DNA from: Escherichia coli
Lineage (GTDB): Bacteria; Pseudomonadota; Gammaproteobacteria; Enterobacterales; Enterobacteriaceae
Length of the DNA stretch: 64,000 bases
Strand: one strand, 5' to 3'
Assembly: GCF_045037415.1 (NCBI RefSeq)
Contig: NZ_CP173438.1
This document shows, piece by piece, positions 29,501-32,500 of the stretch (positions within the stretch are counted from its first letter, which is position 1; every line of letters starts with the position of its first letter). A program made the position numbers.

Positions 29501-32500
29501 GCTTGATTGTTCCGGTAATGCCGCAGGTCGCTTACTGGCACTGCAATCCACAGCTGACTGGGGACGCGTGGTTTACATTGGTGAAACCGGAAAAGTCGAG
29601 TTCGAGGTTAGCGCTGACCTGATGCACCATCAACGGCGGATTATTGGCTCCTGGGTGACCAGTTTGTTCCATATGGAAAAATGCGCCCACGATTTAACGG
29701 ACTGGAAACTGTGGCCGCGTAACGCCATTACCCATCGTTTCTCGCTGGAACAGGCAGGAGATGCTTATGCACTGATGGCAAGCGGCAAATGTGGGAAAGT
29801 TGTGATTAATTTCCCGGATTAAGGAGTCTGCGGATGACCATCTATACCTTATCTCACGGGCCGCTAAAGCTGGACGTTTCTGATCAGGGCGGCGTAATCG
29901 AAGGCTTCTGGCGCGATACGACGCCGCTGCTACGTCCTGGTAAAAAAAGCGGTGTGGCAACCGATGCCTCTTGTTTTCCGCTGGTACCATTTGCAAACCG
30001 GGTGAGCGGCAACCGTTTTGTCTGGCAGGGGCGTGAGTATCAACTGCAACCGAATGTTGAGTGGGATGCGCACTATCTACACGGCGATGGCTGGTTGGGC
30101 GAGTGGCAATGTGTCTCGCGCAGCGATGATAGCTTGTGTCTGGTGTATGAACATCTCAGCGGTGTTTATCACTATCGGGTAAGCCAGGCATTTCATTTAA
30201 CGGCGGATACGCTGACGGTGACGCTCGCTGTCACCAATCAAGGGGCAGAGACGCTGCCATTTGGTACCGGCTGGCATCCTTATTTTCCGTTGTCGCCGCA
30301 AACGCGGATTCAGGCACAGGCGAGCGGTTACTGGCTGGAGCGGGAGCAGTGGCTGGCGGGTGAGTTTTGCGAGCAGCTACCGCAGGAGCTGGATTTTAAC
30401 CAGCTCGCGCCGTTGCCGCGCCAGTGGGTAAACAATGGTTTTGCCGGATGGAATGGTAAGGCCCGCATCGAGCAGCCGCAGGAGGGGTATGCCATCATCA
30501 TGGAAACGACGCCACCTGCACCGTGTTATTTCATCTTTGTTTCAGACCCTGCGTTTGATAAAGGATATGCGTTTGATTTCTTCTGTCTGGAACCGATGAG
30601 TCATGCGCCGGATGACCATCATCGCCCGGAAGGTGGTGACCTCATTGCGCTTGCACCAGGGGAATCAACAATTTCAGAGATGTCGTTGCGGGTTGCGTTG
30701 CTGTAATTTATAAAATGCCGGATAAGGCGTTCACGCCACATCCGGCATCTTTCCTAACGGCGATCGAGAGAAATCGCCCCCGGCCCGGTAATTGCCAACA
30801 GCAGGAATGCGCCAGCGATACTGACATTCTTCCAGAAATTAATCATATTTGGCCCAACCGCATCGCCGGTCATATCCCAGTAATGGTGACCAATCACCGC
30901 CGTACCCAGCGTGTAGAAAATAAACAGCACCGCCAGCGGACGGGTGAAAAAGCCAAGCACGATTAATATCGCGGCGGGCACTTCCATAACTACCGCAATA
31001 ATCGCTGCCAGCATCGGCATTGGCGCGCCCAGCGAGGCCATATATTGGACCGTACCGTCAAAGCCCATCATTTTGGGAAAACCAAAAATAATGAAAATTA
31101 AGACCACGGCGATACGGGCAATTAATAATAAAACGGGGCGGGCAGTGCCAAAATCAAAATAACGTAGTGAGTTCATAACCAATCCCTTTGCAAGATGATG
31201 TGATTTAAACGTAATACACACTCTGGTACCTCGCCACGCCCCAGGCGTTGAGATATTCGTTTCTGGTATAACGGCATAACGCAGATGGCTGACAATGTGC
31301 TTATTGTTTCCTGCCGAATGCGACATGCACGCCTTATCCGTCTCACATGAGTTTGTCAGTTCAATAAATTGCGATTTTCACCTGTTTCATCGTTCTTTTT
31401 TACATGTTGTGTTGTGGGCCGCACTTTTTTGTCATTTCCTGATATGCAGGATAACCGTCAGGAAGCAGGCTCGAATATTCTTATTTTTCAACTTGCACCA
31501 ACATTCGATTAACCCCAGACTAACGCCTCCTGACGGGAGGGACTCATGGTTTTGCAATCCACGCGCTGGTTGGCGCTCGGCTATTTCACATACTTTTTTA
31601 GTTACGGCATTTTTCTACCTTTCTGGAGCGTCTGGCTTAAAGGGATTGGTTTAACGCCAGAAACCATCGGCCTGTTATTGGGGGCGGGTCTGGTTGCCCG
31701 TTTCCTCGGGAGTTTGCTCATCGCGCCCCGCGTCAGCGATCCTTCCCGCCTGATTTCCGCCTTGCGCGTGCTGGCACTGCTGACACTTCTCTTTGCTGTC
31801 GCCTTCTGGGCGGGGGCGCACGTAGCGTGGCTAATGCTGGTGATGATTGGCTTTAACCTCTTTTTCTCACCGCTGGTACCGTTGACCGATGCACTGGCGA
31901 ATACGTGGCAAAAGCAGTTCCCGCTTGATTACGGCAAAGTGAGACTGTGGGGCTCGGTGGCGTTTGTCATTGGCTCGGCGCTGACGGGCAAACTGGTCAG
32001 TATGTTTGATTATCGGGTGATCCTCGCGCTGTTGACGTTGGGCGTGGCATCCATGCTGCTCGGCTTTCTCATCCGTCCGACGATTCAGCCACAAGGGGCA
32101 AGCCGCCAGCAGGAGAGCACCGGCTGGTCTGCGTGGTTGGCGTTGGTTCGCCAGAACTGGCGCTTTCTGGCCTGCGTTTGTTTATTGCAGGGGGCACATG
32201 CGGCCTATTACGGTTTTAGCGCCATTTACTGGCAGGCAGCTGGCTACTCGGCCTCGGCGGTGGGGTATTTGTGGTCGCTGGGCGTGGTGGCGGAAGTCAT
32301 TATTTTTGCGCTGAGTAATAAACTTTTCCGCCGTTGTAGTGCACGCGATATGCTGTTGATCTCGGCGATTTGCGGCGTAGTGCGCTGGGGCATTATGGGA
32401 GCAACGACGGCGTTGCCGTGGTTGATAGTGGTGCAAATTCTGCATTGCGGTACCTTCACGGTCTGCCACCTGGCTGCCATGCGCTATATTGCTGCTCGCC

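Follow-up and report, generated by a model that had tools for sequence, protein, structure and literature searches.

A decayed repeat in place of the hca operon between yphA and hcaT in Escherichia coli, with a counterpart in Escherichia albertii

The window analysed here, a stretch of 64,000 nucleotides from Escherichia coli (contig NZ_CP173438.1, assembly GCF_045037415.1), has yphA directly beside hcaT and is without the hca genes that lie between these two in K-12. In our judgement this is probably the hca-negative allele typical of phylogroup B2, with both alleles of the locus being old and with B2 having either retained or imported an empty allele that bears a repeat. Whilst the absence of hca is an ordinary and already published hallmark of phylogroup B2, the new detail is that a decayed repeat, common to E. 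albertii, occupies the operon's place; the anatomy of the junction and the common allele are small additions to the published record.

The left flank of the junction is formed by yphA (30754-31176, minus strand), which encodes a DoxX-family membrane protein with 98.6% amino acid identity to K-12 YphA over all 140 amino acids (tblastn), and the right flank by hcaT (31546-32685, plus strand), an intact MFS transporter gene whose product is 99.7% identical to K-12 HcaT (tblastn). It is followed by csiE (32677-33978, minus strand), which converges on hcaT, and the hcaT-csiE pair is conserved across the Enterobacteriaceae. With yphA starting at 31176 and hcaT at 31546, the intergenic gap (31177-31545) measures 369 bp, which bears out the direct adjacency of the two genes that had been reported in the preliminary description; the same order is seen in a complete genome without hca that matches a 2 kb query (30700-32700 of the window) at 100%, where the RefSeq annotation gives yphA then hcaT with nothing between. 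In an annotated K-12 derivative yphA is followed by hcaD-hcaB-hcaC-hcaF-hcaE on the yphA strand and then, on the opposite strand, by hcaR and hcaT, and work by Diaz and colleagues in the Journal of Bacteriology in 1998 is said to have described the K-12 locus as hcaT-hcaR-hcaEFCBD-yphA. The preliminary description thus had the K-12 gene order right, but its divergent hcaR-hcaT pair was an error, as these two genes are co-directional and it is from hcaE that hcaR diverges. The window resembles the K-12 locus in its flanking genes, their orientation and the promoter-proximal sequences, and differs from it in having 134-198 bp where K-12 has 5.25-5.33 kb with six genes.

That the catabolic and regulatory hca genes are missing whilst hcaT is kept, as had been proposed, was confirmed by a tblastn search of the whole 64 kb window with the six K-12 Hca proteins, which gave zero matches at E<=1e-3; within the gap itself (31177-31545) the same proteins gave only chance-level matches, the best having E=0.07. 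Searches of the gap for leftovers of hcaR, hcaD or any other hca gene, using tblastn, tblastx and sensitive blastn against ten hca clusters, recovered no gene remnant and returned only REP matches and a shared segment 3' of hcaR.

When the window is aligned to K-12 the homology on the left extends to 31259 and on the right resumes at 31458, leaving 198 bp in the window against 5,328 bp in K-12. Comparison with a divergent Escherichia lineage that has the full operon (L006) narrows the difference to ~134 bp (31263-31396) against a block of ~5.25 kb running from hcaD to hcaR. On the left the sequence common to the alleles ends one base before the hcaD stop codon, and on the right it starts no more than about ten bases past the hcaR stop codon. 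The yphA-proximal intergenic segment (31177-31262), which is common to hca-positive and hca-negative alleles and is 95% identical to K-12 (L001:3510-3669), aligns with K-12, L006 and E. albertii up to AATTATCCTGG, the end of which is directly abutted in K-12 by the hcaD stop codon (TTA on the window strand); within this segment the window is without 11 bp, similar to AATTATCCTGG, that are present in K-12, L006 and E. albertii. The distal part of the hcaT upstream region (31397-31457) is of a type found in B2, E. albertii and L006, with K-12 and L004 (the lineage whose hcaT comes closest to that of E. coli) having a different version of ~30-60 bp, and positions 31397-31465 of the window align with L006 immediately 3' of its hcaR stop codon (77%, E=2e-10).

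The hca block is bracketed in K-12 and L006 by no direct or inverted repeats of at least 8 nt and by no target-site duplication, and the repeats at the window junction are short and at chance level only. Neither the block nor its loss is accompanied by the signature of an IS, a transposon or an integrase island (transposase, terminal inverted repeats, target-site duplication). The earlier statement that the junction has no IS or repeat scar consequently holds for the IS, of which there is none at the window junction, but not for the repeat, since a REP/BIME-type element lies at ~31263-31396. A possible remnant of the 3' end of hcaR in the 25 nt that follow this repeat was considered and rejected, as the local alignment is not significant and 53 to 476 of 2,000 shuffled sequences score equally. 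A pattern with no gene remnant, and with the ends of the block at the hcaD and hcaR stop codons, is equally expected from insertion.

The filler that stands at the site of the 5.25 kb block (31263-31396) is a decayed repeat of BIME/RIP type with a tail of ~25 nt, and REP copies are all that it matches in K-12 and in the hca clusters. Repeats of its family are found in a few copies per E. coli genome, and the filler is 78.6% identical over ~110 nt (31263 to about 31375) to the K-12 repeat between fepA and entD. It contains a degenerate REP palindrome (31313-31347, plus strand), occurring only once in the window, which matches the K-12 REPs at yphB-yphA and trmJ-iscR (86-89%) as well as the fepA-entD repeat and which has the derived bases CCGTCT.ACATGA in common with E. 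albertii. Beside this REP there is a predicted IHF-core-like motif (TCAAnnnnTTG), read from the sequence as TCAATAAATTG (31361-31371, plus strand), which aligns with TCAATATATTG of the fepA-entD repeat. The latter is laid out as a left arm, a REP, the TCAAnnnnTTG motif and a second, inverted REP, a layout that we take to be that of a BIME-1/RIP. BIME-1 and RIP (RIB) elements consist of two REPs in inverted orientation with an IHF site between them (Gilson, Bachellier and Hofnung; Oppenheim et al.; Boccard and Prentki). The filler resembles them in having a REP palindrome followed by the predicted TCAAnnnnTTG motif, and its E. albertii ortholog keeps the second REP; it differs in that it is without the second REP, in that its first REP is degenerate, and in that it is flanked by a pair of divergent promoters instead of lying at a 3' end. 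The second inverted REP, present in both the E. albertii ortholog and the fepA-entD repeat, is deleted from the window (a gap of ~36 nt), and the window copy would thus appear to be a remnant and not an intact BIME. No Rfam family matches the gap at E<=1, and the filler folds no better than shuffled sequences (z = 0.04).

The closest counterpart of the filler is the yphA-hcaT spacer of E. albertii, which agrees with it in site and orientation, is 83.2% identical and has the first 15 nt unchanged. The E. albertii spacer further shares the derived REP bases, the ~25 nt non-repeat tail and the version of 31397-31457 seen in the window. The figure of 83.2% would be near the level of neutral divergence between E. 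coli and E. albertii, and it is little above the 78.6% of a paralogous copy; because of this, the orthology of the two fillers would rest mainly on their common site, orientation, boundaries and tail. When the E. albertii spacer was searched for in E. coli genomes the top matches were paralogous repeat copies only, at 74%.

Within E. coli the filler is present at full length in 1,046 of 5,426 complete genomes (1,045-1,046 in one count), Nissle included, and the hca block in 4,347 of them, with ~33 in other states. Nissle carries the window's allele at 98.5% identity or above and JJ2434 (ST131) shows the match pattern of a genome without hca; both are presumably B2 strains. In complete genomes without the block, JJ2434 among them, a K-12 hca query matches in one place only, over 85-88 bp beside hcaT, and the operon has thus not been relocated in these genomes. 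Of the carriers looked at, M-17 and DS566 diverge most, and each of their flanking genes is nearer to that of the window than to that of K-12. These observations agree with the literature: hcaR and hcaEFCB(D) were found to be missing in every B2 strain and present in others (Touchon et al. 2009, PLoS Genet, PMC2617782), and a B2-specific absence of the hca operon was likewise reported by Fang et al. 2018 (PMC5996543). The absence described in these two studies is the same polymorphism as that of the window, with no substantive difference; they deal with the presence and absence of genes, and the junction, the repeat that fills it and the E. albertii counterpart are not described in them. The mhp cluster, which makes up the latter half of this catabolic pathway, is likewise lacking in most B2 strains, the virulent ones (Touchon et al. 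2009, PMC2617782), but it lies at a different chromosomal locus, outside the window. In addition, hca genes have been tabulated in a metagenomic study among the functions for phenylpropanoate and cinnamate degradation.

Outside E. coli the full order yphA-hcaDBCFE-hcaR-hcaT-csiE is found in the divergent Escherichia lineage L006, in four Kluyvera species and in one Pseudocitrobacter species. At a second Pseudocitrobacter locus and at one Citrobacter locus hcaR adjoins hcaT, with no yphA in the sequence covered, and in the C. freundii complex hca lies close by. Synonymous divergence (dS) between K-12 and L006 is 0.28-0.49 for the hca genes as against 0.27 for yphA and 0.43 for hcaT, and between genera it is saturated (~1-3) for both the hca genes and their flanks; with hca dS equal to flank dS at both levels nothing points to a recent import of hca.

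The Escherichia sampling, which is without E. fergusonii, E. marmotae, E. ruysiae and clade I, includes several further states of the locus. L004, which has 96% identity to E. coli in hcaT, has lost both hca and the yph operon but has retained 40 bp of hcaR and a K-12-type junction, and this junction carries a repeat of the filler's family; no members of this lineage were found among the E. coli genomes, where the best match was 96.6%. E. albertii, E. whittamii and E69 are all without hca and have yphA adjoining hcaT. The spacer of E69 and E. whittamii is different and shorter, has no match in E. coli genomes, and is identical between the two at 146 of 146 positions though their flanking genes differ by 7-10%, which shows that empty alleles move between lineages by recombination. 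The empty alleles, which come into being and spread independently, are of at least two unrelated kinds. No clear tract of recombination or import could be recognised in the flanks of the window, because identity between B2 and K-12 is a mosaic throughout: 96.2% across the yph operon, 98.1% to the right, and 91-95% in patches elsewhere (91-99.8% overall). A deeply divergent haplotype block at the junction, suggested by yphD and yphC at 94.8-95.7% between B2 and K-12, was rejected, as the whole window is a mosaic at 91-99.8%.

How the empty site of B2 came about has to be decided between several explanations, of which the least credible by far, and effectively refuted, is that the junction is an artefact of assembly or sampling, with a mis-joined contig and hca really present: the junction is contiguous in 1,045-1,046 complete genomes, several of which are 100% identical over the 2 kb query, and RefSeq annotates yphA then hcaT. 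The preliminary description had leaned towards the empty site as the ancestral state, with hca inserted in K-12-like lineages, rather than towards a deletion. An ancestral empty site in Escherichia or E. coli, with the hca block inserted later into the ancestor of non-B2 strains, would account for the absence of hca and the adjoining yphA and hcaT in E. albertii, E. whittamii and E69, for a B2 allele that is without hca remnants, for block boundaries at the hcaD and hcaR stop codons, and for the 19 other species in which yphA is directly beside hcaT. We nevertheless regard it as unlikely, since L006, Kluyvera and Pseudocitrobacter all have hca in this very slot and hcaR lies beside hcaT in a Citrobacter, since hca dS matches flank dS both within Escherichia and between genera, and since a 40-bp hcaR remnant tells of a former K-12-type hca locus in L004, which is the lineage closest to E. 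coli in hcaT. The existence of at least two unrelated kinds of empty allele and the absence of a target-site duplication or repeats flanking the block also speak against it. Insertion is thus unsupported, and what stands of the earlier proposal is that the gap did not arise by a simple, recent deletion at a K-12-like locus, given that both the 134 bp filler and 31397-31457 match E. albertii.

The opposite explanation, a de novo deletion of hcaD to hcaR in the B2 ancestor, in which a repeat of the same family was inserted or was already there and the resemblance to E. albertii is convergent, seems to us quite improbable, although several observations can be read in its favour. REP and BIME elements are multi-copy, with the filler 78.6% identical to another copy as against 83.2% to E. 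albertii, and deletions do happen at this locus, as in L004, whose junction also has a repeat of the filler's family. Against this, B2 and E. albertii share the left boundary (15 nt identical), the orientation, the derived REP bases and the tail of ~25 nt, and 31397-31457 is of the E. albertii/L006 type and not of the K-12/L004 type expected from a K-12-like locus. A plain deletion from a K-12-like locus is in fact excluded as the source of the allele, because the filler and 31397-31457 match the E. albertii sequence in the corresponding position and orientation.

The explanation we favour, that of two old alleles with B2 holding the repeat-bearing empty one, would have hca as a long-term resident of the slot between yphA and hcaT in Escherichia and related genera, and the repeat-bearing allele without hca as a separate old allele that occurs also in E. 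albertii. B2 may have kept this empty allele from an ancestral polymorphism, or may have gained it via homologous recombination through the conserved flanks; the junction would then be neither a fresh deletion in B2 nor the reflection of a new insertion of hca into non-B2 E. coli. A broader form of the same idea, which we offer as a tentative possibility only, is that the polymorphism spans Escherichia, with both alleles predating the split of E. coli and E. albertii and having been kept, or repeatedly exchanged between Escherichia lineages by recombination in the conserved yphA and hcaT promoter flanks; in this scenario a precise excision might possibly have been brought about by the REP/BIME element.

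The retention of hcaT can be considered separately from the origin of the empty site. The proximal part of its upstream region (31458-31545, plus strand) is of the same type in all E. coli and is 99.5-100% identical to K-12. It contains the motifs CTTGC (31492-31496) and CCAGACTA (31515-31522), ~20 nt apart and conserved in 24 species from many genera, and a CCTCC-TGAC-GGGAGG hairpin over the ribosome-binding site (31526-31540) that is conserved across genera, with no covariation in the hairpin. No consensus sigma-70 promoters or intrinsic terminators were found in 31100-31620. In K-12, hcaT has been shown experimentally to have its own promoter directly upstream of the gene, and a delta-hcaT strain still grows on 3-phenylpropionate, which delta-hcaR and delta-hcaE-D strains do not (PMC10249474). 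These K-12 genetics would suggest only a partial role for HcaT in 3-phenylpropionate transport. The hcaT transcript also varies so little that it serves as a qPCR reference (PMC3110127).

The product passes the cut-offs of both profiles for HcaT, with 624.5 bits for NCBIfam NF008346 (cut-off 259) and 707.6 bits for TIGR00902 (cut-off 698.9), and hcaT has a dN/dS of ~0.02-0.09, pairs of hca-less lineages included. HcaT proteins 81-89% identical were recovered from 80 species, in all 80 of which the gene adjoins csiE; hca lies within the upstream flank in 12 of the 80, and yphA directly adjoins hcaT in 19 species. On account of its pairing with csiE, its own promoter, the purifying selection acting on it and its conserved upstream motifs, hcaT is a conserved and independent core gene that was named by its position, and not an orphaned component of a pathway. 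It would have been kept at this junction as an Enterobacteriaceae core gene under purifying selection, paired in most species with csiE and not with hca.

Going by K-12 genetics, we infer that the strain would be unable to dioxygenate 3-phenylpropionate or cinnamate, and so would make no use of them through the Hca route. The expression of hcaT should be unaffected, as its own promoter would lie within the 88 bp upstream of the gene that are untouched by the polymorphism. The main role of hcaT is probably not tied to the hca pathway, given that the gene is kept under purifying selection in many Enterobacteriaceae without hca.

The absence of hca has already been published as a metabolic marker of B2 E. 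coli, a group rich in ExPEC, and beyond such bookkeeping it matters little. The locus is a small and clean example of presence and absence alleles that persist in, or move between, Escherichia lineages, and if the polymorphism is indeed old and Escherichia-wide it would suggest long-term, niche-dependent selection for or against the catabolism of 3-phenylpropionate.

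The sequence immediately upstream of hcaT carries what look to be its expression signals. Window 31492-31522 contains a CTTGC motif followed, after a gap of ~20 nt, by CCAGACTA, and both motifs are nearly invariant across the Enterobacteriaceae. A promoter for hcaT has been reported in K-12 (PMC10249474) and this motif pair is probably that promoter; a scan for consensus sigma-70 promoters did not call it. Between the motif pair and the gene lies a hairpin at 31526-31540 (CCTCC-TGAC-GGGAGG) that covers the Shine-Dalgarno sequence of hcaT and, if it forms, would sequester it. Both arms of this hairpin are kept in 22-24 of 24 species drawn from many genera and the loop differs in sequence and length, with no compensatory changes seen in the arms among the 24 species. 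A 12-nt inverted repeat (31455-31466 and 31525-31536, 92% complementary, copies 58 nt apart) has its right copy overlapping the anti-Shine-Dalgarno arm and could compete with the hairpin over the ribosome-binding site; the repeat is a poorer match in K-12 and may have arisen by chance.

Upstream of these signals the gene content differs between lineages. Escherichia sp. MOD1-EC7003 (L004) has lost both the yph operon and hca, and within its positions 9450-10010 the equivalent of window ~20418/21831 is joined to that of 31458. At this junction lies another member of the BIME family to which the filler in place of the window's hca block belongs; L004 also retains small fragments of window 20431-21831 and a 40 bp remnant of hcaR that matches 8519-8558 of the K-12 locus (L001). 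Within the Citrobacter freundii complex and Klebsiella/Raoultella a four-gene module is found directly upstream of hcaT (L011 2984-9912; L066 2996-9923), in Citrobacter lying between hcaR and hcaT. Two of its genes, for a ROK regulator and for a ~1,095-aa protein whose TPR-type matches are weak, look like yphH and yphG, respectively; the other two encode an MFS transporter of the sugar-porter type and a protein of ~280 aa.

Repeats also appear to account for length differences elsewhere in the neighbourhood. The yphB-yphA interval, which carries a REP in the window (30707-30753), is 159 bp in the B2 strains M-17 and DS566 as opposed to 47 bp in the window, probably reflecting REP copy number, and it is because of this difference that the matches of these two strains begin at base 18 of the 2 kb query. 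The yphH-glyA interval is ~148 bp in K-12 compared to 14 bp in the window (20417-20430), probably another presence/absence polymorphism of a repeat; a BIME-type repeat occupies the same spot in L004. Strain AR_0081 (NZ_CP027534.1) has an IS1 inserted in yphA, splitting it into two DoxX fragments, and otherwise matches the query at 100%. Two products of mechanical ORF calling traverse the yphA-hcaT repeat, an extended version of yphA, 190 aa in length, that begins at an upstream ATG (30754-31326) and a 119-aa ORF that crosses the hcaT start in a different frame (31295-31654); neither is annotated in a genome matching the query at 100% and they are probably not genes.

Finally, the yphA-hcaT spacers of 'E. 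coli' E69 and E. whittamii (9815-9960 in both L003 and L005) are identical at 146/146 positions, whereas yphA and hcaT themselves differ by 7-10% between the two, a pattern that indicates recent recombination whose tract covers the spacer alone. Elsewhere, four local stretches of the window (4001-4500, 13001-13500, 21001-21500 and 25001-25500) are just 91-94% identical to K-12, where the surrounding level is 97-99%, which is typical of mosaic divergence between phylogroups.
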